DNA of 64,000 nucleotides from a phage. Position numbers and translations under genes: made by a program. Positions 6,404 through 61,894 of this stretch are shown here, one piece after another. The notes under the pieces are model-generated. The model was not told the DNA's origin. It saw only the letters and a program-made list of their open reading frames with translations, and ran no database searches. Where the stretch lies: the sequence record QB031382.1; one strand, 5' to 3'. Numbering within the stretch: the first letter of the stretch is position 1; the number at the start of each line of letters is the position of its first letter.

Positions 6404-8827
6404 ATGAGCATGTGGTCGTTCGATTTTGAGTCATCCGGTTTGCTGGAAGACCCAGATCTTTATTATCACTGCGGTCTGTTTAAAGAGTTGAATAAGAACC
6501 GTTTTATGCTGTTCCTTCCTCTAAATGACCGCACACACTACTCCGAGGAGGATATAGAAAAGGCTAAGAACTTCATTCTGGCAAAGAAAACTCTTTATAA
6601 AGATTTTGAAGTTCGCATAGCAGATTTTTCGGAGTTGGAAGGTTGGCTTACAGGAAATTCTGACTGGTCACCAACAGCTTTGAACTGCCATAACTGCTAC
6701 AGTTATGACTTTATGCTGATGGAAAGATTATCCGGTATTCATTTTGATATGTTCCGTGATCCTAAATGCATGGGGACTATCAACGACCACCAGGTTAACC
6801 TGTTTGATACGTTGGCGATGAGCCGAATCTTATGGCCTGATCGCCCTTTACCAAAAGGTTGTCCTGACTCCGTATTCAACCCGGTTACTAAGAAAATGCA
6901 GCCTGTTGGTCCTCACGGCCTTATGGCATGGGGCTACGCCCTTGGTAACCAGAAAGTTCAAATTGATGACTGGCGCGATCTTCCGTTGTGGAAGTATGTG
7001 GATCGTGTATTCGAGGACGTTATCATCCAGGAGCTGCTCTGGAAAGAGCTGGTAGCGGAATCAAAAGGTGTATTCTACGGCAAATCTGACATGCAGAACT
7101 TTATGTACGATCCTGCCAAAGAGAAGCCGAAAGGGTTCAAGAAGATCACCTGGAAGAACGCATTGCGCCGGGGTATGCTGCAACACTTCCTGATGGAGCT
7201 GCAGGCCCGTCAGGGTGTGTATTTTGACATAGATGGGGCTATTGCTTTACGTGACCGTTGCGATGCGTGGATGAAAGAAATCGCTGATCGTGTTGAACCA
7301 CAACTACCTTTAAAAGAGCTGTCAATGTCTCAGCGGCCCAAGTTCCCTGAAAAGCCGTTTAACCAAGATGGGACAATCTCCAATAATGGTTGGAAATGGT
7401 TAAAAGATAAGCTTGGCTATCCTGTGGACATGAGCGCTTTAGAGTTCAAAGCCCCACCTAAGCGAGCATTTACCTCCACAGGGGATGTCAGTAAGATGGG
7501 GATAAAATGGTGTGAAGAGATGGGCTGTAAAGACCCTGATAAGATGGCTGATTTCTTGAGGGGCTATATTAAGGGCACTTCCACACCACAACCTTTACCT
7601 AAAGAGCTAATGGATCAGGCAATAAGTGATCTACAGCAGAAGCGAATGCCTGACTGCAAGATACCTATGAAAATCAGCAATCAGGACGACATTAAGCGAT
7701 ACCTGATTAGTGCTGGTTGGCTTCCGACAATGTGGAGAACTAAGGATGTAACTAAAGACAGCAAGAAGAAAGCTCTACCTGATGCAGATGTTGATGCACG
7801 AGTATATGCATATATGGACGAGCTTTTAGAGTCAGAGTATTGTGACCTGATTATCAACTTCTGGAACAAAACTGATGCTAAGTTCCAGACAACCGTGCAC
7901 AAGTTCCGAAGCTTTCCTAACTCCGAAAGGATTAAAAAGGAAGTATTCGGGAAAATACGTAGAAAAGCTAGGGCACTTATTACTTCTCCGCAACTGAAAG
8001 ATACGTTTGGACACCTATGCCCTAATCTTGAAAAATTGAACGGAGAGATGGCTAAAGATATCGTCTTGTGGTTATCATTGCGAAACCGCAGATCGGTACT
8101 TGATCCAATTAAGGAGGATAAGGTTGATACTGGTCTTCTTAATCACCCACGTTTGAAGATTGACCATAAGCTTCCTGCTAAAAGTTCTGGGTTAACAAAC
8201 ACTTCCCGACAGAAACACAGTATTTGTGCGAACATGCCTAAACCATCTCCTAAAGTGGTTATGGGTAAAGAGATGCGTAGTCTGTGGGGTGTTCCTCCGG
8301 GATACTTTGAGATCGGTATTGACGGGTCCAACTTAGAGCAGCTTATCGGGGCTTGGGGTGCCTTTGAGTTCGACAACGGCTTGTATTATGATGTTGTAAG
8401 TAACGGGGACGCACACCAAAACAATGCTGAGGCATATACAAAAGTAGCAGGCAGAGAGGTGTCTCGTAACGACGGTAAACCTATCACGTATGGGGTTATG
8501 TACGGGGCACAAAAAGATAAAGTTGCAGACATGCTGGATATCTCTCCAGAGTTGGGGCAAAGGGTAATCGATGCGCTTTGGGATGCCAACCCCGGTCTTA
8601 AGGGGCGTAAAGAGGATCTAGAGAAATTCTGGGAAGCAACAGGTAAGAAATTTATCTACTCTTTTGACGGTCATGCCATTTGGACCCGCTCTAAACACTC
8701 TTTGCTTAATGCATATCAGCAAAATGGCGGTGCCTCGTTGTGCGACTTGGTCGGAATCCTCATGCACCACCAAATGGTGAAGCGTGGATGGTATGATGAG
8801 GGTGTTCGTCGTATTATTTATTACCAT
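6404..8827 (+). CDS. DNA polymerase, family A, exon 1
   Basis: Exo I SFDFESSGL, motif A GIDGSNLEQL, motif B KPITYGVMYG; exon ends at the CAT (His) codon 8825-8827 before the intron. Confidence 0.85.
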
Positions 8828-9155
8828 AAATAACATTGTGGCTTCGTGCAGTGATGCACGTCGAAAACCTCTTTAATTGACGGGAAGGCTAAGTTGACTT
8901 TTACACCTAAACATGGTAAAAGCTCAATATGCTAATCCGCAGCGAAGCATCCGAGAGGATGAACGTTCAGAGACTATCGAAAGCATAGCTCCAACATAGT
9001 TTGGTGTGAAGAAGCGAGTAGAGTAGGCCAGCAAGTGCGGTCGAAATGAGAGGTGCCTTGGTAACAAGGCAGTGAGATAGTCCGATCCATACGGGAAACT
9101 GTATGGCTATGCACGTAATGGTGCGGGGTAGCTTAACGACCTACCTGAACTATTG
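8828..9155 (+). ncRNA. group I self-splicing intron (no ORF) in the DNA polymerase gene
   Basis: Core elements P AATTGACGGGAA (8875-8886), Q AATCCGCAGC (8934-8943), R GTTCAGAGACTA (8965-8976), S GAGATAGTCC (9074-9083); U before 5' splice site pairs with guide GUGG 8838-8841; G9155 precedes 3' splice site. Confidence 0.75.
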
Positions 9156-14512: not shown

Positions 14513-14710
14513 ATGATTTATCGAATCCGTGTAAGAGAAGATGCACCAGGCTGTTACTTTGACTGGCGTGGGTGGTGGTTTCTCCACCCGATGGATGGAC
14601 TCACAGATAGAATGCTGGATGCTGCCCTTTATACAGATACCGACATAGAATATAATCTCTATCTGAAGGACGGTATAGATAACGGTCTATTTGAAGCAAT
14701 TCCTGTGTAA
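14513..14710 (+). CDS. hypothetical protein
   Basis: SD CAGGAGG upstream. Confidence 0.45.
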   Translation: MIYRIRVREDAPGCYFDWRGWWFLHPMDGLTDRMLDAALYTDTDIEYNLYLKDGIDNGLFEAIPV

Positions 14711-14778: not shown

Positions 14779-15204
14779 ATGACCTATGAAATGCCAAAAC
14801 TGATTCGTGACGATGCCCAAAACGCTCACACCATTATTATGGGCAAACGCATGGATATTATTTGTCATAAAGATTTCTGGGAAGGAAGTTACTTCACAGA
14901 GTATTTTGGTAAACTGGACAATGGTCTGCTGATCCAGTTCTACACCGATGCGGAAAACAACATTCACTGGGAGTTCGAAACTGAAGATATCCATAAACTT
15001 TTCACCTTCCTCGGTATTAAGGTTGAGGCCAAGTTTGAAGAAGGTGAGTGCGACGATTGTGGATTCTACGAGGTAACAGATTTCTATCTTCCGAGTGGTG
15101 AGAACCTTTACTATGAAAGCCACTTCGGTAACTCCAATATGCCACAGTGCTGGACTGAGTTTTTTGAAATTGTGGAAGAGGAGTTGGCATATCGTGATTA
15201 TTGA
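14779..15204 (+). CDS. hypothetical protein
   Basis: 141 aa ORF with GGAGAA upstream. Confidence 0.5.
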   Translation: MTYEMPKLIRDDAQNAHTIIMGKRMDIICHKDFWEGSYFTEYFGKLDNGLLIQFYTDAENNIHWEFETEDIHKLFTFLGIKVEAKFEEGECDDCGFYEVTDFYLPSGENLYYESHFGNSNMPQCWTEFFEIVEEELAYRDY

Positions 15205-17479: not shown

Positions 17480-18060
17480 AATCCCTGGCACATCAAACAT
17501 AAGGAGGATTTCTAAAATGGATTTCCTCCTTTTGATATTTTACCTGGCCGGATATTTTAAAATTCTTAGAAAATCAGAAAATGGATCGAAAACTAAAATG
17601 GATTTTTTCAAGACAGGCACGATAAGCTGTGCTAATCATCCTATCGTTCGCACCGTACTTCAAATCACCGTTCCAGATTTTCCGCACACACTCTCACCCT
17701 TCTACCAGAACTTTCCCAACTTACCTTCGGCCTTTTATGACAATAAGTTAATTATTATCAGTAAGTTTTGATACATCTCTCTCAGTACTCGATCTGTTTT
17801 TCATTTCAAAGATTGGATTTTCTGAAAATTTTTCTCGATAAATTTTTCGGTACTCGATCTGTTTTTCGTTTTCTGAATCGGATTTTCTTGAAATTGGTCC
17901 AGCACCAGATCTAAAATTTTTGGGAACGAAAGCGATTTTTCGTTTTCAGAAATGGATTTTTAAAATTTCTATATGGGAATATTTTATGAGGTATTATTTT
18001 ATATAGAATTGTCACGGTAGGTAATTAGCATGCTAACTAAATTTATGAAATGCGAAAAGT
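17480..18060. repeat. AT-rich non-coding region with iteron-like direct repeats
   Basis: TGGATTTT at least six times; GTACTCGATCTGTTTTTC twice, 65 bp apart. Confidence 0.5.
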
Positions 18061-18102
18061 TCTCATTTAGAATTTTGAATGATAATCATTCTCGTTTGCA
18101 GA

Positions 18103-18131
18103 ATAACGGGCACCCCCGGTGATTGTCTCCC
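18103..18131. repeat. GC-rich 29-nt element, left copy of inverted pair
   Basis: ATAACGGGCACCCCCGGTGATTGTCTCCC; exact reverse complement at 26211-26239; degenerate direct copy near 18240-18275. Confidence 0.6.
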
Positions 18132-18640
18132 GGCCCCTACTGCCCCGGCTTGCTATTATAGTATCACACAGGACAAAGAAAGCAAGGAGTTTTTGCATAA
18201 ATTTTTAGACGATAATGATAATCGTTCTCATTTCATGCAGCGCCCATCCCCGGTGGTTGTCTCCCCCGTCACCGGTGCCTGCCGTCCTTTCGATATGTAT
18301 ATTGTGCCACCTGGCGGGGCCGCTGTCAACACTTTTCAAAAATTTTTTTCTAACCTGATGCACTAACCGCTGCAACCTGGCGGGGCCAGCCTGGCAGGAC
18401 CTAACTGACCAGGTGGGCCTATGCTATAGGATAGGTAACAATTGAAGAGGAGGTACAAAAAATGGAAGGTAATATGATCCCCTGGAAAATGTAGCTATTA
18501 ATGACGCTGAGGCTATCGCCCTGGTTGAAAAGGCTATGGCGGGAGCGTTGGAACATAAAGAAGAGTACGAAAAAATTATGGTTAACCTGGCAGGGTCGGC
18601 GGCTGAGGAATTTTGCCCAAAAAATAATTTTAACTAGTGG

Positions 18641-18669
18641 TTGACAGCTCGGACAGTTTTTGCTATTCT
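18641..18669 (+). promoter_or_regulatory. sigma70-like promoter
   Basis: TTGACA, 17-bp spacer, TATTCT. Confidence 0.45.
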
Positions 18670-18721
18670 TATCCTCGCAAGGTGAACAACACCACACTAA
18701 TTAACAGAGAGGATAAAAATC

Positions 18722-18919
18722 ATGAACGCCTACGGAATCAAAGTACGTCGCAACACTCGCCAGGTGGTCACCAATCAAGTGATTTGCCGGGCGGATGTAA
18801 CCATCAACAACGGGCAAGGCCTTTATAAATTTCGTCGCGGTCATAGTTATACCCTGCAACAGCTTAATCGTTGCGCCCTGACAAAAGGCCAGATCAACCA
18901 CTGGTTTAATAAAAAATAA
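18722..18919 (+). CDS. hypothetical protein
   Basis: SD GAGAGGA upstream; promoter upstream. Confidence 0.5.
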   Translation: MNAYGIKVRRNTRQVVTNQVICRADVTINNGQGLYKFRRGHSYTLQQLNRCALTKGQINHWFNKK

Positions 18920-18922
18920 GTA

Positions 18923-18951
18923 TTGACATATAGCCTGACACAAAATACACT
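18923..18951 (+). promoter_or_regulatory. sigma70-like promoter
   Basis: TTGACA, 17-bp spacer, TACACT. Confidence 0.45.
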
Positions 18952-18983
18952 AAAAGCACAAAAGACACTAAGAGGATAAAATC

Positions 18984-19382
18984 ATGAAAACCACTACCTT
19001 TAATTTTGACAATGCGGACTTTTCTTTTTCTGATGTCAAGAACTGCCGCCGTGATCGTGGATTTTATAAGGCTTATAATCTGGTGGGCCTGGACGATGAC
19101 AATAATTTGCACGAAGTAGCTGAGATCCGGTATTATGCCGCCGCCAGTGGGAACACTCACTACTGCGTTTTTTGGATACACGACAACAAGAACAATAAGT
19201 ACGGCTATACTGGCGGCAAGGCGAGCGGTCACGGTTATGATAAAGCTAACGCAGCACTTGAGAGCGCATTAAATGCTATGGGGATCACTGCCGACGGCTG
19301 GATCTACGAAGAAGAGTTTTTGTCGGCACTTGCTGACCGCCTGGGATATAAAAAGCACATTGTAACATGTGCCCACGAATAA
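18984..19382 (+). CDS. hypothetical protein
   Basis: SD AAGAGGA upstream. Confidence 0.5.
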   Translation: MKTTTFNFDNADFSFSDVKNCRRDRGFYKAYNLVGLDDDNNLHEVAEIRYYAAASGNTHYCVFWIHDNKNNKYGYTGGKASGHGYDKANAALESALNAMGITADGWIYEEEFLSALADRLGYKKHIVTCAHE

Positions 19383-19393
19383 AAAAAAAATTA

Positions 19394-19421
19394 TTGACAC
19401 GCTGCAAAATTCAAGTAAACT
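19394..19421 (+). promoter_or_regulatory. sigma70-like promoter
   Basis: TTGACA, 16-bp spacer, TAAACT; A10 tract upstream. Confidence 0.45.
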
Positions 19422-19431
19422 AGACACAAAA

Positions 19432-19450
19432 GGCGGGAATGTTTCCCGCC
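19432..19450 (+). promoter_or_regulatory. 5' UTR stem-loop
   Basis: GGCGGGAA-TGT-TTCCCGCC between promoter and SD; related hairpins before ORFs 20154, 21997 and 22714. Confidence 0.5.
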
Positions 19451-19469
19451 AACACAAAGGAAAAAGATC

Positions 19470-19874
19470 ATGAATAAGAACGTACGCCGCATCATGAACG
19501 AGTTGGCAAACGATGAAAAAATTATTGACATGCATTTGATCAACATTTGCCGCCGTTGTGTAACATATAACAACCGCGCCGCAAAAGCGCGTGAGATGAA
19601 CGCAAAAGGCACCTTAAAGCCATTCCAGGTGGTGGTAAAGGCCATTAAAAATGTAACTAATACGGCAAACCAGGTACAGGGGAACACCAACGAGAGTACC
19701 AATATTGATCCGGCTTACATCATGAAACGGATCCGGACCTGTAAGAACAAAGAGCAAGTGTATAATGTTATAGACTGGTTGGATTCTATGGGCGACGTGG
19801 TGTACAATAGATTCTCGGCAGCTATTGAGATCCAGCTTGACAGGTTGGACGGTAAAGTACTGAAAACTTATTAA
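19470..19874 (+). CDS. hypothetical protein
   Basis: Promoter, 5' hairpin and SD upstream. Confidence 0.55.
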   Translation: MNKNVRRIMNELANDEKIIDMHLINICRRCVTYNNRAAKAREMNAKGTLKPFQVVVKAIKNVTNTANQVQGNTNESTNIDPAYIMKRIRTCKNKEQVYNVIDWLDSMGDVVYNRFSAAIEIQLDRLDGKVLKTY

Positions 19875-19885
19875 GTTTATTTTTA

Positions 19886-19909
19886 GATGGCCTTGACTCC
19901 AGGGCCATC
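19886..19909 (+). repeat. conserved 3' RNA hairpin element, copy 1
   Basis: GATGGCCTTG-ACTC-CAGGGCCATC between TTTATTTTTA and AATAAAGTAAAC. Confidence 0.55.
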
Positions 19910-20074
19910 AATAAAGTAAACTAGTCTCAACTAAGCGAAAAAGGGGGCTTTAAGATGAGCACTACACGCCAATACACAAAGGTAACTATTATCGTTTGCG
20001 TTGTCGGTTACATCCTGGCGCAAATGTTAATGAGTAGCGCCAACAGTTTTGCAAAATTTTTCTTAAATTTTTAA

Positions 20075-20102
20075 TTGACAAGCTAACCCAAATCAGTATA
20101 CT
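20075..20102 (+). promoter_or_regulatory. sigma70-like promoter
   Basis: TTGACA, 16-bp spacer, TATACT. Confidence 0.5.
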
Positions 20103-20153
20103 TAAACACGTAAACGGGAAAACTTCCCAGAACACACAAAAGGAGAAAACACC

Positions 20154-20495
20154 ATGACTACTATGACCGCCGCAGAAAAAGCTATGCAGATCGCCGCGCT
20201 GAAAAAACAGATCGCAGACCTTGAGAACAAGATCGATAACTTTGAAATCGACGAGGACAAGTACGACGAAAACTATAATGAATGGCTAGACGAGATCCAC
20301 GGCGAAATTATGATCGGTAACATTTCTTTTCTTCCGTCGCGTATCCTCAAGGAGTTAGATCCTATCGCTTACCGCTGCGGATTTAGCGACTACATCGACA
20401 GCCTGGGCATTGAGGACGACGAAGACTATCAAGAATTGCAGACAGAGTTGGAAGAAATGAAAGAGGAGCTTTCAAAGCTGGAAGAAAACGAGTAA
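20154..20495 (+). CDS. hypothetical coiled-coil acidic protein
   Basis: Promoter, 5' hairpin and SD AAAGGAGAA upstream. Confidence 0.55.
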   Translation: MTTMTAAEKAMQIAALKKQIADLENKIDNFEIDEDKYDENYNEWLDEIHGEIMIGNISFLPSRILKELDPIAYRCGFSDYIDSLGIEDDEDYQELQTELEEMKEELSKLEENE

Positions 20496-20507
20496 AATTT
20501 ATTTTTA

Positions 20508-20531
20508 GATGGCCTTGACCCCAGGGCCATC
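20508..20531 (+). repeat. conserved 3' RNA hairpin element, copy 2
   Basis: Near-identical to copy at 19886. Confidence 0.55.
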
Positions 20532-20581
20532 AATAAAGTAAACTTTACACTGTTACACTGAACTAATGAGGAGTTAAAACT

Positions 20582-20827
20582 ATGGCAGCACTAATCACAA
20601 AATATTATGCGCCCACCAACACCAAAAGCGCCCGTATCATGGTAAAAGGTTTCGGACGTAAAAAGGTCTACACCTGGGACTATTCCCTAGATATGGAAGA
20701 CAATTATACCAACGTAATGACTGATTTTATTAATGATCTGAATAAACAGATCCTAACCGACTACAAAGTGACCGATATTGTTTACATAGGTGAAGGCGGG
20801 ATCTGTTTTGTAGGCATTGTGAAATAG
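20582..20827 (+). CDS. hypothetical protein
   Basis: SD GAGGAG upstream. Confidence 0.5.
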   Translation: MAALITKYYAPTNTKSARIMVKGFGRKKVYTWDYSLDMEDNYTNVMTDFINDLNKQILTDYKVTDIVYIGEGGICFVGIVK

Positions 20828-20837
20828 TTATTTTTTC

Positions 20838-20862
20838 GGTGGTCCTGGTTGCAGGGGCCATC
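20838..20862 (+). repeat. conserved 3' RNA hairpin element, divergent copy
   Basis: GGTGGTCCT-GGTTGC-AGGGGCCATC; substitutions keep pairing only as G-U in plus-strand RNA. Confidence 0.45.
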
Positions 20863-20903
20863 TATAAAGATAATTTATTAACACCATGAAAGGAGAAAGT
20901 AAC

Positions 20904-21257
20904 ATGATCAGCGGGGCCAGTTTTATTATCGGCGCTATTGCTACGGCTTTAATTGTAAACAAGATCCAGGATAAAAAGGAAAGAGGAAGTACCGCCCTTG
21001 CAGAATATCCATTTTGGACATTCAACGATAACGAAGATTATATTATAAAGTATAAAAATAAAGAAGGCGACCAAGTAACACCGCGACCGATCCCGGCTTA
21101 CAAAATGCAGGAAACACTATACCGCCTTGAGGCGGGCGGCGCAAAAATTGTTGACTTTTGGGGATACGACCACACAGATCAGGAAGTTATAAAGCGCCGT
21201 ATCCGGGCTATTCAGGCCAATATTGAGGTTAGCAAGAGGGGAATATATGAAAATTAA
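20904..21257 (+). CDS. hypothetical membrane protein
   Basis: SD AAAGGAGAAAG before ATG; N-terminal hydrophobic helix. Confidence 0.5.
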   Translation: MISGASFIIGAIATALIVNKIQDKKERGSTALAEYPFWTFNDNEDYIIKYKNKEGDQVTPRPIPAYKMQETLYRLEAGGAKIVDFWGYDHTDQEVIKRRIRAIQANIEVSKRGIYEN

Positions 21258-21444
21258 TTTCGAGAAAATTGTAAAGCGCCCTCATGATTCCGAAGAGTTG
21301 CCAGAACGCCGCCAGCGCAACAATAAGCTGAATAAGCCAAAAAGGTTTGGGAAGATCTGGCGTAATCATTATGATCGTAAATTGCCCGGCCTACTTTTGG
21401 AACGTGAACGACAGGCAGAACGCTACCGCCATAAAGACAAATAA
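21247..21444 (+). CDS. hypothetical basic protein
   Basis: ATG overlapping upstream gene end; Lys/Arg-rich. Confidence 0.4.
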   Translation: MKINFEKIVKRPHDSEELPERRQRNNKLNKPKRFGKIWRNHYDRKLPGLLLERERQAERYRHKDK

Positions 21445-21452
21445 CAACCAAC

Positions 21453-21480
21453 GCCCCGCCATTGTGCGGGGCTTTTTATT
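21453..21480 (+). terminator. intrinsic terminator
   Basis: Hairpin GCCCCGC-CATTGT-GCGGGGC followed by TTTTTATTT. Confidence 0.65.
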
Positions 21481-21601
21481 TCTATCCTACGAATAGCGCC
21501 CCTGGTTGGCCCTGTAAGCGCCAAAAAGGCCCCCACCTATGCAATCGCCCCTTTAACCTGAAAACATCGCCCAGGGCCGTCCTATGGCGTTAAAAATATC
21601 A

Positions 21602-21629
21602 TTGACATCGTCAACAGGTTAGCTATACT
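21602..21629 (+). promoter_or_regulatory. sigma70-like promoter
   Basis: TTGACA, 16-bp spacer, TATACT. Confidence 0.5.
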
Positions 21630-21661
21630 AACCACATCAAAGAGAGAAAGGAGTAAACGCC

Positions 21662-21922
21662 ATGCGTAAATTAAAAAATTTTGATAAAGTTGATGTTATC
21701 CTGAATAATTTTTACTACTGCAACAATAAAGCTATCTGGTGGCGGGATAGTTCCACCGATAAAGTCAAAGCGCGCTTTCTTCAAGGGCACTGGCAAGGCC
21801 GCCCAGTGATTAAAATCATGGGGCAATTGGTAGCGTTTAAAAATTGCCGCCGCGTTGATGACGTTGAGGAGATTTTAAACATTTTGCGCCACAATAATTT
21901 AAAAAATAGTGTTGACAAGTAG
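21662..21922 (+). CDS. hypothetical protein
   Basis: SD AAAGGAG upstream. Confidence 0.5.
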   Translation: MRKLKNFDKVDVILNNFYYCNNKAIWWRDSSTDKVKARFLQGHWQGRPVIKIMGQLVAFKNCRRVDDVEEILNILRHNNLKNSVDK

Positions 21923-21939
21923 ATCTCAATAAGTATAAT
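21912..21939 (+). promoter_or_regulatory. sigma70-like promoter
   Basis: TTGACA, 16-bp spacer, TATAAT. Confidence 0.55.
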
Positions 21940-21949
21940 TAAACACACA

Positions 21950-21968
21950 GGCGGGAAAACTTCCCGCC
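21950..21968 (+). promoter_or_regulatory. 5' UTR stem-loop
   Basis: GGCGGGAA-AAC-TTCCCGCC. Confidence 0.5.
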
Positions 21969-21996
21969 ACTAACAAAGAAAACAGGAGAAAATATC

Positions 21997-22620
21997 ATGA
22001 CCACCGTTAACATTACCACAGGTTACAATTTATCTTTCGACGTGCTGACCGACGAACAAAAAGAAAAAGCCATTGAAATGGTCCGCGAAAGAGAAGAACG
22101 TAGCGGGGACGATTTTTTCGCAGAAAATGTAATTGAATACTATAAAGAACAAGTTTTTCCAGAGTACGGCCTTGAGGATACCGAAGTACATTGGTCCGGC
22201 TTTTGGTGTCAAGGCGATGGCGCATCGATCAGTGCTGAAAATGTAGACTTAGAAAAATTCTTGCGTAAAGTCAAGGCCCTGACCAAGTTCAGATCAATTC
22301 GTCACTTGTTCGGCACAATGCACGATGGCGAACTATCCGCCAGTGTTGAACGCGACAAGTACAGCCATTACAGCCATGAAAACACTATAAGCGGGTACAT
22401 TGATACCACTTGGATAGATCTGACCGCCAAACAAGAAAACAAAGTGGAAGACCTGGAAGAATTGATCACCGAGACGGTACGGGAGCTATCCCGCAAGGTT
22501 TACGTAGACCTTGAGGAGGCCTATCTAGAACAGTTCACCGCAGAAAACCTGATCGGCCTTATTCAGGCCAATGATTGGCGGTTTGATGTCGATGAATATG
22601 GTGAGATGACTTTTTCATAA
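21997..22620 (+). CDS. hypothetical protein
   Basis: Promoter, hairpin and SD upstream; 207 aa. Confidence 0.55.
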   Translation: MTTVNITTGYNLSFDVLTDEQKEKAIEMVREREERSGDDFFAENVIEYYKEQVFPEYGLEDTEVHWSGFWCQGDGASISAENVDLEKFLRKVKALTKFRSIRHLFGTMHDGELSASVERDKYSHYSHENTISGYIDTTWIDLTAKQENKVEDLEELITETVRELSRKVYVDLEEAYLEQFTAENLIGLIQANDWRFDVDEYGEMTFS

Positions 22621-22628
22621 ATAAAGTG

Positions 22629-22656
22629 TTGCAATAACCTAAAAACCTGCTATATT
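22629..22656 (+). promoter_or_regulatory. sigma70-like promoter
   Basis: TTGCAA, 16-bp spacer, TATATT. Confidence 0.45.
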
Positions 22657-22713
22657 AAAACTCAAGGGGGGCAAGACATTTGCCCGCCAACACAAAACAA
22701 AGAGGATAACATC

Positions 22714-23094
22714 ATGAAAAATACTACTAAGGCTATTGACACCGTTATGTTTAACCTGGTTACACTCCGTGAAGATATGAAAGATCTTCCGCGTGAAACA
22801 GTGTGCGACCATATCGAAAACTATCGCAAACTAATCAAAGAGTTGCCATTAAAACGAGATCAGTACGCGGCTAACGCTATGCTAAACGCCATGATCAAAA
22901 AGATGATCCAGTGTGATCTAACCCTGGCCTATGATTATGCAGGCGGTCGTTTTGCAGTATACAATCAGCCCGTGCCTGGTATGAGCACCACCGAAGAATT
23001 GCACGCGCTCAATCTAAAACAGGACGTGTGGGATAGTATGCCTCGCGTGGTGGTATGGGTAGAAAGCGGGAAGATTTACGGCGATAATTTTTAA
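22714..23094 (+). CDS. hypothetical protein
   Basis: SD AAGAGGA upstream. Confidence 0.5.
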   Translation: MKNTTKAIDTVMFNLVTLREDMKDLPRETVCDHIENYRKLIKELPLKRDQYAANAMLNAMIKKMIQCDLTLAYDYAGGRFAVYNQPVPGMSTTEELHALNLKQDVWDSMPRVVVWVESGKIYGDNF

Positions 23095-23158
23095 TCAGGT
23101 AGCAGGCGGCATAATTGCCGCCTTATTGTTGATCAGAACTGCAAAAGGGGTACATAGA

Positions 23159-23530
23159 ATGGAATTTATTATTTTGGCCGTATTGGTTGCCTTATTTAAC
23201 GCCTGGATCGCTGGCAAGATGGGAAGATCCGCCTTTTTATGGTTTATTATATCTATTTTCCTGGGGGTGGTTGCAACTATTGTACTGGTTATCCTTGCAA
23301 TTGTTGACAAGGGGAATAATAGAAAGGGTAAAGTATTTTCAGACCTGTACGACGCTCAAACGTTTGTCAACGCCTATTACAGCGATCTTCCAGTCTCCCT
23401 ACGTTGCAGCCTTGCACAACAGGTTTTTGATGAGGCTAAAACCAGAGATCACGCCCATGAGATTTGTTTAACTGAGGCGGATCGCTTATTTGAGAGGAAT
23501 AGAAAATATGTGGGCCAGCCGTTTAAATAA
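23159..23530 (+). CDS. hypothetical membrane protein
   Basis: Two predicted TM helices; ATG after AAGGGG. Confidence 0.5.
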   Translation: MEFIILAVLVALFNAWIAGKMGRSAFLWFIISIFLGVVATIVLVILAIVDKGNNRKGKVFSDLYDAQTFVNAYYSDLPVSLRCSLAQQVFDEAKTRDHAHEICLTEADRLFERNRKYVGQPFK

Positions 23531-23873
23531 TACCACGTTAATTAATCCATTTAGTGAAGATTTGAGGCCAGCCGCCTGGCGGAATGGATTCAATAACGAA
23601 AAATTTACTTTTAGGCCTGATCTTGAGGAATTTTATAACAATGGATCGAACAACGACAGAAATAATTTTTCTCGTAATGTGCGTGGCGATAATACTCCTG
23701 GGGGCCATTGTAAACCACGTCACTGCTAACAGGAGGAAAGGGGGAGACGATGACAACCAAGGATAAGCCCAGCACCGACAAGGCGCGCCGCGTTATGGTA
23801 TGGCTTGAGATTATCGCCCTTGAAATATTGTTAGGCGTAGGGATGTATTTTATCGCCGTACGTACCTGATAAC

Positions 23874-23906
23874 GGCCCCCGATCCCTGGGGGCCTGACTT
23901 TTTTCA
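23874..23906 (+). terminator. intrinsic terminator
   Basis: Hairpin GGCCCCC-GATCCCT-GGGGGCC followed by T-rich tract. Confidence 0.55.
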
Positions 23907-23933
23907 AAAAAAAAAATTTTTTCTTCCGGGGTG

Positions 23934-23961
23934 TTGCAATCCGGTCCGGAATATGGATAAT
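23934..23961 (+). promoter_or_regulatory. sigma70-like promoter
   Basis: TTGCAA, 16-bp spacer, GATAAT; shares ATATGGATAATA box with promoter at 24752. Confidence 0.45.
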
Positions 23962-24020
23962 AACAATCAACGGGGAGACACTCCCCACCACACAGACAAA
24001 GTTCCAAAAGGAGAAACAAA

Positions 24021-24221
24021 ATGAGCAACAATATCCGCGTTATTAACTTCAAAAAAGAAGAAAAAATAGCTGTGCTGGTTGATGGTCAAGAAATATTCAA
24101 GGGGTATTACGAAGATCATCAGGCGGCGATCAGTATTACCCGCGTAATTGGTTACCATAATTTTTACCCTCAAGGCGCTGAGGCAGCAGTAAAACGAATT
24201 AAGGAGATTGTAGGCCTGTAA
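24021..24221 (+). CDS. hypothetical protein
   Basis: SD AAAGGAGAA upstream. Confidence 0.5.
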   Translation: MSNNIRVINFKKEEKIAVLVDGQEIFKGYYEDHQAAISITRVIGYHNFYPQGAEAAVKRIKEIVGL

Positions 24222-24233
24222 AATTTATTTTTA

Positions 24234-24257
24234 GATGGCCTTGACCCCAGGGCCATC
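24234..24257 (+). repeat. conserved 3' RNA hairpin element, copy 3
   Basis: Near-identical to copies at 19886 and 20508. Confidence 0.55.
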
Positions 24258-24313
24258 AAATAAAGTAAATTTAAAACCTGTTAAAATAATCAGTGCAAAA
24301 AGGAGAAATGATC

Positions 24314-24613
24314 ATGTTTATACCCGCCAATGATCTTTATTTCTTTGATGGTCAGATCGTAGACGGCGTGGAAGTTGAGATCGCTGGATGTAAAGGCGGC
24401 CAGGTAATGATCTTCCGCAATAGTGCCTTTAACGATCATTTTATTACAATGACTGTGGAAGTTAAAAAGCTGGATGATAAGAAAACACTCATTGACTATT
24501 CCGTGAAAGATCATCCAGACTACCACATGATCTATGGTGATTTGTGCATTGTTGACCGTGACAAGGTGGGCGGCATTGTGATCGCTATTGTGAACGATGT
24601 TTTCTCTGAATAA
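24314..24613 (+). CDS. hypothetical protein
   Basis: SD AAGGAGAA 8 nt before ATG. Confidence 0.5.
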   Translation: MFIPANDLYFFDGQIVDGVEVEIAGCKGGQVMIFRNSAFNDHFITMTVEVKKLDDKKTLIDYSVKDHPDYHMIYGDLCIVDRDKVGGIVIAIVNDVFSE

Positions 24614-24673
24614 TTCCGGCAAATGATGCAAAATAAGGCCCATGGCAGGGCCTGCAGCGATATAATCACACAA

Positions 24674-24703
24674 AGGCTATGCAGTTGCATGGCCTTTTTA
24701 TTT
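24674..24703 (+). terminator. intrinsic terminator
   Basis: Hairpin AGGCTATGCA-GT-TGCATGGCCT followed by TTTTATTTT. Confidence 0.5.
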
Positions 24704-24751
24704 TAGCGCTACAGCGGCCCCCAAGGCGTTTAAAAAATTTTTAAAAAGTAC

Positions 24752-24779
24752 TTGCATCAAGTCCGACAATATGGATAAT
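24752..24779 (+). promoter_or_regulatory. sigma70-like promoter
   Basis: TTGCAT, 16-bp spacer, GATAAT. Confidence 0.45.
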
Positions 24780-24838
24780 AGGACTTATCAGGGGGGGGCG
24801 GCCCCCAATCATTAACCGGATAGATGGGAGTTAAAATC

Positions 24839-25123
24839 ATGGCTATTGTTACCGTGGGCGATGTAGTAGAAATGGAAGCAAAATACTTAAAAGCGGGTAT
24901 GCATATCCTACGCAACGATCTTGAACTAGTCCTGACAATGGTCGACTATAATCCCGGTCAGGATTATCCAAGCATCGACTACTTTTTCCAGTATGTTGAC
25001 GAAGAATTAAAAGAAGATGACGCTTATCGTGGTGAATTTTGCAATTTCTTTTGCCCTGATGAGGTTGTAAAAGTTATCTATCAACCTGGCGTACCTTTCC
25101 CGTTGCACGCCATCAATAAATAA
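24839..25123 (+). CDS. hypothetical protein
   Basis: ATG after GGGAG. Confidence 0.5.
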   Translation: MAIVTVGDVVEMEAKYLKAGMHILRNDLELVLTMVDYNPGQDYPSIDYFFQYVDEELKEDDAYRGEFCNFFCPDEVVKVIYQPGVPFPLHAINK

Positions 25124-25584
25124 GCCTGGCGGGGCCGAAAAAGGCCCCTCCTGAAACTATGAAAAAATAAAGATAGGTGAATCATCATGATGGAACAAAT
25201 TAAACGCGCTGAGGCTATTAATGGCAATGATGCCGCCAACATGACAGAATGAAAAACATCATTTACAGATTGACAAAACGCAACATCATGATCGCCACCG
25301 TGATCGCTTGCCTTTTCGCTTTCGTGAGTAACGCAACGTTTAACGCCGTGGGCCGGGTGGTGTTTAATGCTGGCAGTGTTTCAACAGCTAACACAATAAT
25401 CGATTGTTTGCAACTTTTCTTTTATGTTGCCTTTCGTTTAAAAATAGCTTGCAAGGTAGACCGTTTTGATTTACCTTTTATTTGTGGCGGCGTGATCGCT
25501 ATCGTATGCTAACAGAGGATCAGAAGAAAAGTGTACGACATAGGGCGGGGCAATAAGGCAACGCCCATTAATGAGGGTGGAATC

Positions 25585-25689
25585 ATGTTAGAAAAAATTT
25601 TCACGGTTGTAGTAGTTGGCATGGCATTATCGGTTGGAGTGGTTGCAACTATGGCTAACATGATCCTATCTTCCCACGGTATCGGGTAA
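25585..25689 (+). CDS. small hydrophobic peptide (34 aa)
   Basis: Hand-translated MLEKIFTVVVVGMALSVGVVATMANMILSSHGIG; SD GAGGGTGG upstream. Confidence 0.4.
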   Translation: MLEKIFTVVVVGMALSVGVVATMANMILSSHGIG

Positions 25690-25699
25690 GGTGAAACAA

Positions 25700-25858
25700 A
25701 TGATCACGAACAAAACAGGAAAAACGGAATTTTTACGCGGCTTGCAAATAGGTAAGCCTGAGATCTGGTATTGCACTAAAACACCACGTGACGAAATGAA
25801 AGATTTTACCGCCACGCTGAAGCGGGTAAAGATATCTATCACGCAGAAAAAGCCTTGA
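25700..25858 (+). CDS. small protein (52 aa)
   Basis: Hand-translated MITNKTGKTEFLRGLQIGKPEIWYCTK...; SD AAGGTG upstream. Confidence 0.4.
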   Translation: MITNKTGKTEFLRGLQIGKPEIWYCTKTPRDEMKDFTATLKRVKISITQKKP

Positions 25859-26004
25859 TAGTGGTGGAAGGTGAGATCCCTCAAGCCGTTGTTATAGTTG
25901 AGCGTACAGCATAGTTTAATCTATACCGTACGCCCCATTAACTAACAAAGCATAAGCAGGCGGCGGTGACCGCCTTGAACGCAACAGAAAGAGAATAGAA
26001 AAGC

Positions 26005-26139
26005 ATGAGAAAGGTAATTATCACCATAGGGATCGTGGCGGCAATGTTGGCGATCTTTCCCTTTATGGTTAGGTATGTGCTGATCAGTATTGTCCTGATA
26101 GTCAGTGGTCTATTGGAAACGGTTGGCAACTGGTTTTAA
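26005..26139 (+). CDS. small membrane protein (44 aa)
   Basis: Hand-translated MRKVIITIGIVAAMLAIFPFMVRYVLISIVLIVSGLLETVGNWF. Confidence 0.4.
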   Translation: MRKVIITIGIVAAMLAIFPFMVRYVLISIVLIVSGLLETVGNWF

Positions 26140-26210
26140 GATAATAAACAGGGCTTGCAATGGTCCTGTTTTTTGTTATACTTATCTCACGGGTGGCACC
26201 TGGCGACGGG

Positions 26211-26239
26211 GGGAGACAATCACCGGGGGTGCCCGTTAT
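26211..26239. repeat. GC-rich 29-nt element, right (inverted) copy
   Basis: Exact reverse complement of 18103-18131. Confidence 0.6.
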
Positions 26240-26258
26240 ATAAAAACTATAAAAACAG

Positions 26259-26287
26259 TTGACATCTGCCAGGTGGTTAGGTAACAT
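26259..26287 (+). promoter_or_regulatory. sigma70-like promoter
   Basis: TTGACA, 17-bp spacer, TAACAT. Confidence 0.45.
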
Positions 26288-26341: not shown

Positions 26342-26614
26342 ATGTCAAGCTGGATTAATCAAAAAGTTGAATCACGTTTTAATGCTATCTGGGATCTCAT
26401 CGAAAAAGAGGACGGAACATCAAGCCCTTACCTCAATAATCTTGAATTCCATTTTGTGGAAGCGATGAACGCAGAACATGATCACAAAGGTGGCGCGGAT
26501 GAGTTCGCTCAAGGGTATGGCTTCAACAATGCCAACGAAATGATTGAAGCGGTTGTACTTCAGGCTGAGGAAGATTATCAATTAAAAACACTTGAATTTT
26601 GCCGCCGTAAGTAA
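26342..26614 (+). CDS. hypothetical protein
   Basis: SD AGAGAGGAA upstream. Confidence 0.5.
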   Translation: MSSWINQKVESRFNAIWDLIEKEDGTSSPYLNNLEFHFVEAMNAEHDHKGGADEFAQGYGFNNANEMIEAVVLQAEEDYQLKTLEFCRRK

Positions 26615-26978: not shown

Positions 26979-27731
26979 TGCTCTTTTCCTACCATAAACG
27001 GCCCTACCTGGCAAGTGGAATAATTGACGAGCCATTAATCCCGCACACTGTACAAATATACATATAAAATAACTATTGCATAATCTTTCATCTTGTGGTA
27101 GCAGGGTCATTTTTACACGTTTTTCCTTCCAAAAATGCACGTAATGCAGCTATTGCACAAAATTTAACCTGATGCACATTTTCAGCATACTGTCAACAAT
27201 TAAAAACCCTTATAAATCATACACTTACACAAACCAAAAAGCGTGTCCTACGTGAAAAATCGGGTGTAACTATAGCCGACAGATCTCAGAATCCACGTAC
27301 GATCACCATTCTATAGCCTGCTAAGTATTTATTCCAACCACAGAATAACGGAATAGTCAATACCTGTACAAAATAATTATTCGTATAAACTGCATAACAT
27401 AAATTTTCTCATGTGTAAACATTTTTCGTAAACAGTCCGAAATTGTCACGATAGGTTACTATAATCAGAGAAATCTTTAGTCGTCTAATGTTTACTGCAC
27501 ATAACTATACTGACTGGAATCATTAGATGACTAAGAGAAAGATAAGAAATAGTTAACAATGTAATTGTTTTACCTGTAACAATAAGGCAACTATGCAAAC
27601 GAATGTCATGGCGCGACGGAGTCGCGACATAATATAAAAGCAGTAACCATCACCCCCGTGATAGTTTATCTGCAAACTATTGATCAGATCATAGTTGCCT
27701 TAGATTTAGTTAATCATGACATAATAAGCAA

Positions 27732-27759
27732 GGCAACTATAGATCTGATAATAGTTGCC
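27732..27759. repeat. perfect palindrome
   Basis: GGCAACTAT-AGATCTGAT-AATAGTTGCC; half-sites recur nearby. Confidence 0.55.
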
Positions 27760-27789
27760 CTGCTTTTATATTATGTCATATATTATTAA

Positions 27790-27850
27790 CCTGTTAATTG
27801 TCAGCTTATTGGCTGTTAGCTTGTCAATTGTTAACTTGTTAATTGTTATC
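27790..27850. repeat. four tandem 15-bp iteron-like repeats
   Basis: CTGTTAATTGTCAGC / TTATTGGCTGTTAGC / TTGTCAATTGTTAAC / TTGTTAATTGTTATC. Confidence 0.55.
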
Positions 27851-29482
27851 ATGCAAACGAATGTCATGGCTTATCATCTTTGTGTAAACTGTCAGGGTGT
27901 AGACTATTCAAGGTGTAAATTATTCAGATGCAAACTATCCAGGCGTAAACAGTCTATGCGGGAACAATCTGCACGTGAACAATGAAACATGAAATAATAA
28001 CAGTCGTTATTGTATCGAAAGTGTATAAGGTGTCAGATTATGGCATATTGTGTGACATTGTGTCAGACAAGTTTTTCTCCTCTTTGTCAAGTGCTGCATG
28101 TAAAATTTACAAACTGGTATGGTAGCATTTTTGCGGCCCTGTTTACATTCAGGAGTGTATGTATAACCCTTGTTGTGTGGGCGTTTAGACGTCTGGACGG
28201 TCAGAAGTCTGCAGGTTAATATCTAATCTATTGGTCGCTAACTATATCCCCACAAATAATAAGAAATGCAATTGTTATATGCGTAAACAGTAACTCATGT
28301 TATCAATCCCTGTATGTATCGCCAGTGGTGCGCATAATGGGTATTATGTTAAATTGCCCGTAATGATAACGATTCTCACAATGATAGGTATTCTCATTCA
28401 CCCGCCCAGGATAGGTTGCAAATGTTGTGCCACTGTGTGAACGGCCTCGCCTATTAATTTGCCTCACTGCCCCGATATTTGAGAATTATTATAAGAATGA
28501 GAAGTATTCCCATTTCGTCCGCCTGGCAGCACTCCTGTAGGACAAGCACAAAATCGTGGCATAACTGTACCTGTTCAGATATTTCTGGCTGACTCTTCAG
28601 GTCTGTGTGGGAAAAGCCAACCTCTCCGGCGGCGGGGAGTGGGTCAATTAAAAAATTTACGTGGTGTATGAAGCGCTCTTCAGGTAAGGCAGGTATTATG
28701 GGATGAATCACTCTTCAGGTGATGATATTTGTAGGTGTGATATTTGCTGGAAAGCCAGATATGACGGGACTCCCGGCGGGGCAGGGGTAGTACAGACAGG
28801 GAAAATGTGGAGAATGTGGTGGGTAAATTGATCAAGCAGGTAGAGTATGGAATATGTTACAGGTATGTTAAATATGGAGGTAAGATATTTGTAAGATTTG
28901 TGTGTAAAATCAAAGACTTAAGTAGTGTTGTGGTATTTTCTATAAATAATTCAAGTTTAATAGGGAATATTTGCCTCTATCCACTTTGTATGGTAACTAT
29001 ATTCTAATTGAATTGGTTTACAAGTGTATATAAAGTATACAAATTAAAGATACAAGAAACCCCCCTCCCCCTTCGGCTACCATTCACCTTTTCCTCTGAC
29101 TGGTACTTAAACACTTATTCAGACTCTTCAGGTTATCACTCATATATCATATGGCAGTGACTGGTGTCCTCCGGCCCCTCTTTCGTCACCCGTCCGCTTC
29201 GCCATGCTAATGCCATAGCTAACTGTTCGGTTGTTCACCCTGTTCACTCAGGTGTATCTCCATACCCCTTCAAACCGAAGAGAACAGAAAACCCGAATTA
29301 CTCGGTAAAAGAAAAGAGAAGAACTTAATTTTATCAGGATAGGCAAGAATGTCAAGGCATGACTGCTCACTAAACAAGCAAACAGTCATGTGTGGGAGGT
29401 AAGTGATTGTGGTGGTAGGAAATTTAGTTGAAAGATGTGTTATAGGTGCTTCCAGCACTTTAGCCTGGCAGCTAATTGTGTG

Positions 29483-61005: not shown

Positions 61006-61894
61006 CTCTCACACAATCATCCACTGACTTAATGAACTCTTGCACCCAAAGTGCCCCTATTTGCGGAACTATAGCGTTACCGAAGCCTTTGTGGCGAGAC
61101 AATCCCATTGGGGTGGATAGCCCATCAACCAACAAGGGAATGCCGGGTTCAGGAAGTTTACGCCATTTTCCGTCTCGGCATAGACACTGTCCTGTATGCT
61201 CCCACACCCGTAATACATCCTCACCTGCTCCCACAGATTCCCAGGACTTAATGACTTCCTGCCAGTTGCTAAGCGTTGTTGCTTGCGCCTCTCCATCGCC
61301 TCCTGAGATCTGCACCCTACCTGAGTTACCGTAGGGGTTAACCATGTTGCTAACTGCCCCGAAGTAAAGTCGTTCGCGGCGGTGCGGGGCGTTGAGGATT
61401 GCAGCATTAAGTATGGAAGCCCCGAAGCTGTAACCAGCGTTTTCCATTTCATCCTGCATATCGTCGAGCCATCCAGATTCAGTCGCTTTTGCAACCTGCT
61501 CTCCAAACATGAACTCAGGTCTAAGCTGTTTAACGATCCGGAGGTATGTTGGTGCGAGATGTCTTGGGTCAAATTTTCCACGTTGCTTACCTGCCTGAGA
61601 GAAAGGTTGGCAGCACGGAGATCCTGTGCATACCGACCAAGTTTCTGGAATGCCAGCAAGTTTCAAGGCCAAAGGCCATCCACCTATGCCAGCGAAGAAG
61701 TGCCACTGTGTGAAACCTTTAAGATCTTCTACAGTAACCTCTGTGATAGAACGATCATCAACCTCGCCTTGAGGAAGTAGCCCTAAAGATATTAGGTTCT
61801 TCAACCAAGCAACGGCATCTTTATCATTATCGTTATAGTATACCACACTCAACTCTCCAAATACTGATGTATCCAAGAAAAGTCTGTTTCCCAT
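60992..61894 (-). CDS. DNA cytosine-5 methyltransferase (compact)
   Basis: Motif I HFFAGIGGW, IV SPCCQPFSQAG, VI FGEQV, VIII ILNAPHRRERLY, X GNAIVPQI. Confidence 0.8.
   Translation of the reverse strand: MGNRLFLDTSVFGELSVVYYNDNDKDAVAWLKNLISLGLLPQGEVDDRSITEVTVEDLKGFTQWHFFAGIGGWPLALKLAGIPETWSVCTGSPCCQPFSQAGKQRGKFDPRHLAPTYLRIVKQLRPEFMFGEQVAKATESGWLDDMQDEMENAGYSFGASILNAAILNAPHRRERLYFGAVSNMVNPYGNSGRVQISGGDGEAQATTLSNWQEVIKSWESVGAGEDVLRVWEHTGQCLCRDGKWRKLPEPGIPLLVDGLSTPMGLSRHKGFGNAIVPQIGALWVQEFIKSVDDCVRGECG

Follow-up and report, generated by a model that had tools for sequence, protein, structure and literature searches.

Promoter-early stem-loops (PeSLs) are reportedly mobile regulatory cassettes of the hyperplastic regions of T4-type phages. 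In lambda, nutL and nutR are paired, promoter-proximal leader sites on divergent early transcripts. RyhB is a Fur-regulated small RNA, and STAB-SD of cryIIIA and the SP82 phage leader are 5' mRNA stabilizers with a Shine-Dalgarno-like purine tract. Here we compare these systems with a locus in QB031382.1, a 64,000-nucleotide stretch of phage DNA (referred to as the window) in which an exact 29-nt inverted repeat brackets 8.1 kb of small early genes. Our preferred reading, to which we give about an even chance, is that the 29-mer forms the conserved core shared by a family of cis-regulatory, noncoding leader elements that are ~35 to 45 nt long, GC-rich, and most likely transcribed.

The window is rV5/FV3-like Vequintavirus DNA, 96% identical to phages VB-EcoM-WM and FV3 across 17.0 to 27.5 kb. 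As the original prediction reported, ATAACGGGCACCCCCGGTGATTGTCTCCC at 18103 to 18131 on the plus strand (copy A) recurs as an exact reverse complement at 26211 to 26239 on the minus strand (copy C). Identity between the two stops at exactly 29 nt, with different flanking bases on both sides, and the pair is the longest and top-ranked inverted repeat of the window. When as many as 3 mismatches are allowed, the window holds 2 matches to the 29-mer; no dinucleotide-preserving shuffle reached this number, which rules out a chance repeat. A degenerate direct copy had also been proposed, and its presence was borne out: CCGGTGGTTGTCTCCCCCGTCACCGGTGCC at 18237 to 18272 on the plus strand (copy B), found by both profile and repeat search, is a tandem paralogue that matches at 78% over 37 nt. 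A profile built from ~38 homologous copies and run against all 64 kb finds only these three sites (E values of 2e-10, 5e-10, and 1.5e-6), matching 18102 to 18135 at copy A and 26205 to 26240 at copy C. The minus strand of copy A and the plus (gene) strand of copy C both read GGGAGACAATCACCGGGGGTGCCCGTTAT. The next profile match (E = 2.4) is a weak element-like stretch, GGGCTATCCACCCCAATGGGATTGTCTCGC, on the minus strand at 61093 to 61123, where the genes also appear to lie on the minus strand. This stretch, the best non-self duplex partner of the element's G-rich strand (-32 kcal/mol), probably resembles the element by chance. The three CCTGGCGGGGCC motifs noted earlier are present as well, at 18310, 18376, and 25125, positions that differ by 2 to 3 nt from those first given (18313, 18374, and 25127). 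Read by eye, the motif at 25125 forms the stem of a terminator-like hairpin (GGGGCCGAAAAAGGCCCC) directly after an open reading frame (ORF) that ends at 25123.

Alignment across phages shows a conserved, GC-rich unit of ~35 to 45 nt, with the core CCGGTG-W-TT-R-Y-CT-Y-S plus flanks. Copies A and C are found in the same relative orientation, 8 to 11 kb apart, in Vequintavirus, Phapecoctavirus (phiWec190), Seunavirus (GEC_vB_MG), and Certrevirus (PBES02, KaOmega, and POP18). Copy A is additionally present in Mydovirus and Henunavirus, bringing the sampled genera with the element to six, from Vequintavirinae and Stephanstirmvirinae. At blastn sensitivity, there are typically 3 places per Vequintavirus record and 1 to 2 in the other genera. 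The genes that flank A and C are nonhomologous between the Vequintavirus, Phapecoctavirus, and Certrevirus/Seunavirus groups, and a tie to one downstream gene family is rejected. Identity between A and C extends over 29 nt in the window and in VB-EcoM-WM and over 19 nt in rV5, and it is scattered in PBES02, where copy A carries CACCC/A and copy C carries CAGGT/T. Exact 29-nt identity is particular to the FV3 lineage, and gene conversion is its simplest explanation. Site C of Certrevirus (L005 25440 to 25480, L024, L025, L018, and L022) also contains a 31-nt partial tandem duplicate (…CAGGTCCGGTCTGCCTCCCT) between a Fur box and the full copy. Searches of the accessible literature by sequence and by topic recovered no description of the element, and the rV5 paper does not mention it.

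The core also appears in unrelated phages. It is identical over 18/18 nt, with similar flanks, in AT-rich contigs from freshwater metagenomes and IMG/VR. There are three copies in freshwater contig L091 (55 to 72, 3629 to 3646, and 9684 to 9701) and three on contig IMGVR_UViG_3300027123_000194, and the core is found in contigs L104 (1396 to 1413) and L102 (441 to 458). Pectobacterium phage Arno18 (Ounavirinae) has one copy of the core, and a phage-like run of small genes in a Pseudobdellovibrionaceae metagenome-assembled genome (MAG; L158) has two, at 4012 and 5335. The positions in L147 (1782 and 3332), L146 (462), and L185 (219) belong to this same set of freshwater, MAG, and Arno18 sequences, in which the promoter upstream of each copy is strong and often has an extended -10. 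The genes downstream of the element in these contigs are unrelated. Matches in the metagenome and genome scans are mostly due to chance, with only L091, L102, L104, L057, and L158 being real homologues. Because the element outlasts its neighboring genes in a plastic early region and recurs in unrelated phages, it probably performs a basic, undescribed control step in early transcription or replication. Separately, a terminator lies just upstream of the element in L158 (3955 to 3990), and its stem, GGGGAGACA...TGTCTCCCC, has the same sequence as the element core; the match may allow alternative pairing or may be a clue to the origin of the element.

A sigma-70-like promoter is found at every bona fide copy examined (~40). 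The promoter-bearing strand is always the G-rich one, which reads GGGAGACAATCACCGG / GGGGGAGACAAWCACCGG, and the -10 hexamer ends 22 to 39 nt upstream of GGAGAC. All of these promoters score at least 7.5 and most at least 8, values to be set beside the 17% of random positions that reach 8 and the 5% that reach 9. A 200-bp gap that separates a terminator (26146 to 26171) from the gene at 26342 contains copy C. Here, the terminator hairpin of the upstream gene and the predicted promoter P2(C) together occupy 26146 to 26182 on the plus strand, with a -35-like TTGCAA in the hairpin loop (26155 to 26160) followed by TGtTATACT, whose -10 is at 26177 to 26182. This promoter, TTGCAA-16-TGtTATACT, reads through copy C toward the gene at 26342, and the layout with the -35 inside the terminator loop of the upstream gene is the same at the C sites of other genera. 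Downstream of copy C is a second sigma-70-like promoter, TTGACA-17-TAACAT (26259 to 26287, plus strand), the rV5 equivalent of which is the annotated promoter P168.

Copies A and B both lie in a noncoding region of ~700 bp (17772 to 18463). On the minus strand, P2(B), TTGACA-17-(TG)CACAAT at 18301 to 18329, reads leftward into copy B, and the promoter-like P2(A) at 18155 to 18185 reads into copy A, with a perfect TATAAT at 18160 to 18155 and TTGCTT at 18185 to 18180. A rightward candidate, P1(A), is found at 18075 to 18104 (TTGAAT-18-CAGAAT, plus strand); the 29-mer starts inside its -10, and copy A therefore sits between face-to-face promoters. P1(A) has 8/12 matches, which is under the scan threshold, and with a Fur box in its spacer it looks Fur repressed. 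On the G-rich strand, the promoters of other copies include TTGCAA-17-TATATT at Certrevirus A, TTGATC-16-TATTAT at Seunavirus A, TGATATAAT with an extended -10 at the freshwater copies, TTGACC-17-GATAAT in L158, and TTGCAA-18-TATTCT in Arno18. As read from the ORF lists, the G-rich strand is codirectional with the downstream gene at all C sites, at 7/7 freshwater copies, and in Arno18.

These observations suggest a model in which each copy closely follows a sigma-70-type early promoter on the ...GGGGGAGACAAWCACCGG... strand and would thus fall in the initial transcribed region, at ~+15 to +45. The promoters would fire, and the G-rich strand would be the functional transcript. With a promoter upstream on its G-rich strand, copy C would most likely be the leader of the next early operon, oriented rightward like the genes and belonging to a terminator-promoter-leader unit that precedes the operon starting at 26342. 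Copies A and B would be transcribed leftward out of the 700-bp control region, and their transcripts would enter a putatively Fur-controlled, repeat-rich region, perhaps an origin, in which Fur boxes, an AT-rich stretch, and 65-bp repeats resemble an origin or control region. The inverted repeat would then exist because the control-region copy at 18.1 kb faces the opposite way to the copy at 26.2 kb. The element itself would act not as a folded RNA but as a linear sequence motif to which a host or phage factor binds. In favor of this leader model, we count conservation that is independent of the genes, the fixed copy number, promoters at ~40 copies, the match with gene direction, the core in unrelated contigs, an unconserved overlapping ORF, and the absence of inversion, of a recombinase, and of a target-site duplication.

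Several results weigh against the leader model. Copies A and B and both L158 copies face opposite to the local genes, so that "operon leader" cannot be the whole story. All of the promoters are consensus matches, and the 19-nt spacer of P2(A) is poor. The fold energy of the element is no better than that of shuffles, with z-scores that are not significant. RNAalifold returns 0 pairs for 20 C-type copies and a weak 6-pair closing helix for 11 A-type copies, and a test of flank pairing gives a mean z of -0.34, with the two strands alike. An inner hairpin drawn by hand pairs better on the C-rich strand (86%, with many G-U pairs), and the element has no notable complementarity to rRNA. The hand-drawn structure as a whole, which was drawn from one of the tested sequences, is 74% paired, compared with 71% in shuffles. 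A stable or conserved RNA fold on either strand is not supported by the fold, RNAalifold, or flank-pairing tests.

Lambda nut parallels a leader element in arrangement: near-identical short sequences lie on opposite strands a few kilobases apart, each just after an early promoter, and the inverted repeat is a by-product of opposite transcription rather than a recombination site. However, the element lacks a conserved hairpin of the boxB type, no boxA-like sequence is seen by eye, and it does not qualify as a nut site. The leftward copies A and B also have no leftward genes to express. We know of no N-like protein in these phages. The purine tract of the STAB-SD type has a counterpart in GGGGGAG on the G-rich strand (GGGGGAGGUAAUC in Phapecoctavirus), near the predicted 5' end and without a start codon at initiation distance. 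Unlike a STAB-SD, however, the element varies at GGAG (GCGAGA and GGAAGA), and its best-conserved part, AAWCACCGG, is not explained by pairing with 16S rRNA.

PeSLs resemble the locus as short, repeated, noncoding units in early regions of small genes, units in which an early sigma-70 promoter is joined to a stem-loop or terminator. The layout at site C is exact, with the -35 in the terminator loop, and the flanking genes are shuffled between relatives. This terminator-promoter arrangement is present at site C and its homologues, and A and B have a promoter with no terminator. In contrast to PeSLs, conservation here falls on the GC-rich sequence of ~35 to 45 nt downstream of the promoter, and not on the promoter itself or the stem-loop. 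The element is further distinguished by its low copy number (2 to 3 per genome) and its fixed positions; it is found in both orientations and in phage families that are unrelated, and no recombination products were seen. The window does contain a separate family of the PeSL design, a 61-nt repeat present three times (19862 to 19922, 20484 to 20544, and 24210 to 24270). Each has a GC hairpin (GGCCTTGACYCCAGGGCC) with TTGAC as -35 in its loop, followed by a TAAACT-like -10, and these repeats look like PeSL-type terminator-promoter cassettes between early genes.

We also considered, and find quite unlikely, that the C-rich strand is the functional one and encodes a family of small RNAs (5'-GGGCACCCCCGGUGAUUGUCUCCC...) whose conserved, C/U-rich 5' seed is similar to an anti-Shine-Dalgarno sequence. 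At A, this RNA would be made from a classical Fur-repressed promoter and would thus be induced by iron starvation; at C, it would be an RNA of ~95 nt that ends at the shared bidirectional terminator and is antisense to the leader of the next operon. The architecture of copy A is suggestive in this respect, since the Fur box lies in the TTGAAT-18-CAGAAT spacer and the element begins right after the -10. The same promoter was scored at Seunavirus, POP18, and Henunavirus, and related hexamers are seen by eye at Certrevirus and Phapecoctavirus. The predicted C-site RNA of Vequintavirus, Phapecoctavirus, and Seunavirus is Hfq-type in appearance, with a seed, an A/U-rich linker, a hairpin, and a U tail. 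The G-U pairs of the 86%-paired inner hairpin are mismatches on the other strand, and the Phapecoctavirus loop UUACCUCC is, by reading, similar to the 16S 3' end. Yet a good promoter for the C-rich strand is present only at A, being poor or absent at B, Vequintavirus C, the freshwater phages, Arno18, and L158, and in Certrevirus and phage C12, no U tail follows the hairpin in this direction. Conserved structure or covariation expected of an Hfq-type RNA was not found beyond the weak asymmetry in G-U pairs, in line with the lack of a consensus structure in RNAalifold. The A and C cores diverge within genomes, as the PBES02 alleles illustrate, and the only targets inside the phage are the element copies themselves. 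Nor are A and C a conserved pair of leaders acting as antisense RNAs in trans, since individual Certrevirus and Phapecoctavirus genomes carry different alleles at the two copies.

Other identities for the element were rejected. No known RNA family or tRNA-like gene lies at the sites: Rfam gives nothing at the gathering threshold, and at E of ≤10 it gives chance-level matches far under the gathering scores, none of them over the element core. Mimicry of or complementarity to E. coli 16S, 23S, and 5S rRNAs and three tRNAs is unremarkable, with a best ungapped match of 13/18. In a comparison of consensus sequences by eye, sigma-E, sigma-54, and sigma-32 promoters, ops, CRISPR-repeat mimicry, Chi, and KOPS misfit in spacing or at conserved bases, and none is conserved across copies.

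Palindromes resembling Fur boxes, of the form AATGAKAATNATTMTCATT, lie directly left of both A and B. Two of these 19-bp palindromes, 29 bp apart, are at 18049 to 18067 (3 mismatches) and 18078 to 18096 (1 mismatch). The box beside copy B (18211 to 18232) matches the E. coli consensus GATAATGATAATCATTATC at 17/19 positions and the 9-1-9 consensus with 1 mismatch. The window contains 6 sites with at most 3 mismatches, against 0.25 expected, in two clusters (18049 to 18232 and 28362 to 28514). Across these phages, the consensus is AATGAGAATCATTCTCATT, which is identical, letter for letter, to the Fur-box consensus of Xanthomonas and close to that of Shewanella and Bacillus (PMC1790865). By their sequence, the palindromes beside A and B thus qualify as putative Fur boxes (19-bp 9-1-9 palindromes), whereas the 29-mer does not. 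As at Fur-repressed promoters, they fit the published consensus and, at A, overlap the promoter spacer. Unlike Fur systems, the element can lack Fur boxes, as it does at Vequintavirus C and in both the freshwater phages and Arno18, and discrete boxes in arrays with a 29-bp spacing are unusual for Fur regulons. The element also has no sequence similarity by eye to RyhB.

Related genera have 2 to 6 boxes at the 29-bp spacing, with three direct repeats of 63 to 78 bp ahead of them (Mydovirus included). Such arrays are found at 14820 to 15018 in L003, 14908 to 15026 in L005, 14922 to 15041 in L025, and 14990 to 15037 in L023. They are kept across Vequintavirinae genera and Phapecoctavirus, in large noncoding regions of strictly lytic phages, which suggests control of the early or origin region by host iron through Fur. 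No description of Fur-box arrays in these phages was found in the searchable literature.

In the window, the repeats ahead of the Fur boxes are three iteron-like direct repeats of ~65 bp (17775 to 17960, plus strand) in an AT-rich stretch toward which the leftward promoters of A and B are directed. Three repeats of 63 to 78 bp occupy the same place in Certrevirus, Seunavirus, and Mydovirus; equivalent repeats are at 14701 to 14881 in L005, 14744 to 14952 in L004, and 14724 to 14928 in L023. The direct repeats, just left of the Fur boxes, carry a conserved core, GGTCTCGATCG...GATCGTATT, along with short 12-bp periodic repeats. Copy A is always within such a noncoding region of 0.7 to 1.4 kb that combines the three direct repeats, the 12-bp periodic repeats, and the 2 to 6 palindromes, and the iteron-like repeat region may be a replication origin. 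The cumulative GC skew of the window follows only the direction of transcription. The rV5 authors likewise found that GC skew merely tracks transcription direction, and skew analysis did not locate the origin (PMC3606486).

The setting of copy A bears on a further explanation, namely, that the element is an orientation-independent site in double-stranded DNA, either an operator or roadblock for a DNA-binding protein or a component of a replication origin that acts, for example, by transcriptional activation or R-loop priming beside the Fur-box and iteron arrays. We regard this as unlikely. It would account for the conservation of primary sequence without RNA structure and for the constant position of copy A amid direct repeats, 12-bp periodic repeats, and palindromic boxes. 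It would also suit the varied orientation relative to genes (A, B, and L158 versus C and the freshwater copies) and the tandem partial duplications (A/B in the window and site C in Certrevirus), and from the universal promoter, a G-rich transcript would extend into AT-rich DNA. However, no protein in common with the Vequintavirinae loci was detected in the contig regions compared for the element-bearing phages outside that group, and no DNA-binding protein common to the unrelated phages was found there, so that a common phage-encoded binder is not evident. The 3 to 4 copies within ~10 kb of freshwater contigs, each upstream of a gene, are unlike origins, and the GC skew of the window gives no signal other than that of transcription.

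Taking the leader model further, one can envision a portable, promoter-proximal element of ~45 nt (core CCGGTGWTTGTCTCC / GGAGACAAWCACCGG) that has spread among unrelated phage lineages and is kept because it engages a universally conserved host machine. The lineages would be Vequintavirinae, Stephanstirmvirinae, an Ounavirinae phage, uncultured freshwater phages, and the phage-like region of the Pseudobdellovibrionaceae MAG. Candidate machines are RNA polymerase, the ribosome, and an RNA-decay factor, with the element serving, e.g., as a factor-independent pause, an antitermination signal, or a transcript-stabilizing signal. In enterobacterial phages, the element would be wired to Fur-box arrays, and a strictly lytic phage would thus read the iron status of its host in the control region of its early genes or origin. 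We consider this extended proposal unlikely as a whole. Conserved arrays of canonical Fur boxes in phages of Escherichia, Salmonella, Cronobacter, Klebsiella, Pectobacterium, Erwinia, and Proteus do suggest sensing of host iron, which, if true, would affect how these widely used therapeutic and biocontrol phages behave in the gut and at infection sites.

The original prediction held that the repeats could mark an invertible or mobile cassette, recombination sites, or binding sites. Under the first two options, the 29-mers would be recombination sites that bound either an invertible segment or, as terminal inverted repeats, a mobile or composite element with the 8.1-kb block inside. The exact inverted repeat around the block invites this explanation, and the gene content of the block varies among genera. 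To represent an inversion, we joined the left flank plus repeat to the reversed inner-right sequence and scored coverage of this artificial junction at a threshold of at least 80%. None of 274 matching phage genomes reached it, the matches breaking at the repeat, whereas the native junctions are unbroken in 115 records on the left and 80 on the right. The 10 largest ORFs tested, from the block and directly beside it, include no recombinase or transposase; all of them fall in PHROG families of unknown function and have nothing above the curated Pfam cutoff, and no recombinase is annotated in relatives. The bases outside the repeats, TGCAGA on the left and ATAAAA on the right, differ and thus show no target-site duplication. 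In each of the 4 genera in which both copies were located, their order is the same, with no empty sites. Identity between the repeats falls to 19 nt in rV5 and is scattered in Certrevirus, yet the sites persist, and the third copy is direct.

Thus, of the features of an invertible segment of the Gin/Hin/Cin type, the flanking inverted repeats are present, and a recombinase and both orientations among assembled genomes are not; of those of a transposon or composite element, the transposase, target-site duplication, and empty-site polymorphism are all missing. In related phages, where a comparison of block synteny had been proposed as a check, A and C keep a fixed relative orientation at 8 to 11 kb in those 4 genera. 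At the level of assembled genomes, the recombination reading is essentially excluded, and overall we hold it to be extremely improbable. Recognizing that the 29-mer pair does not delimit an invertible or mobile cassette removes a false lead. The suggestion of binding sites survives in spirit, as a conserved functional or regulatory site, although as a conserved noncoding element and not as the mark of a cassette.

Two ORFs that overlap the repeats, 18079 to 18366 (plus strand) and 26102 to 26287 (minus strand), exist as described. Both contain the 29-mer in one and the same frame, at offsets of 24 and 48 nt from their starts, and ITGTPGDCLP is present in the translation of the former. In three relatives (L016, L003, and L004), however, the ORF from 18079 ends after 6 to 26 codons, and copy B is in a reading frame different from that of the 29-mer in this ORF. 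The repeat region is therefore noncoding, and a shared peptide does not explain the repeat.

The bracketed block itself (18464 to 26139, plus strand), which is outside the element, consists of small plus-strand early genes. The annotated genes of the surrounding ~15 to 27 kb are likewise all small, on the plus strand, and of unknown function, and each of the 9 largest block ORFs tested belongs to a PHROG family of unknown function. To the right, plus- and minus-strand genes converge on ~2.2 kb of noncoding DNA (27050 to 29300) that holds Fur-like boxes and GC-rich islands, with the maximum of the cumulative GC skew beside it at ~30 kb. Database records of several related phages begin at the equivalent of ~28.4 kb, which may place a physical genome end or terminal repeat in this region. 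To the left, a full-length group I catalytic intron (Rfam RF00028; 75.6 bits, E = 2e-17) is found at 8818 to 9105 on the plus strand, where it presumably interrupts a gene in the 1- to 15-kb region. Finally, ~20 GenBank records (MG0656xx) named "Campylobacter phage," several of them UNVERIFIED and with Campylobacter jejuni given as the host, are 84 to 98% identical to this region of an E. coli Vequintavirus, and their host labels look doubtful.

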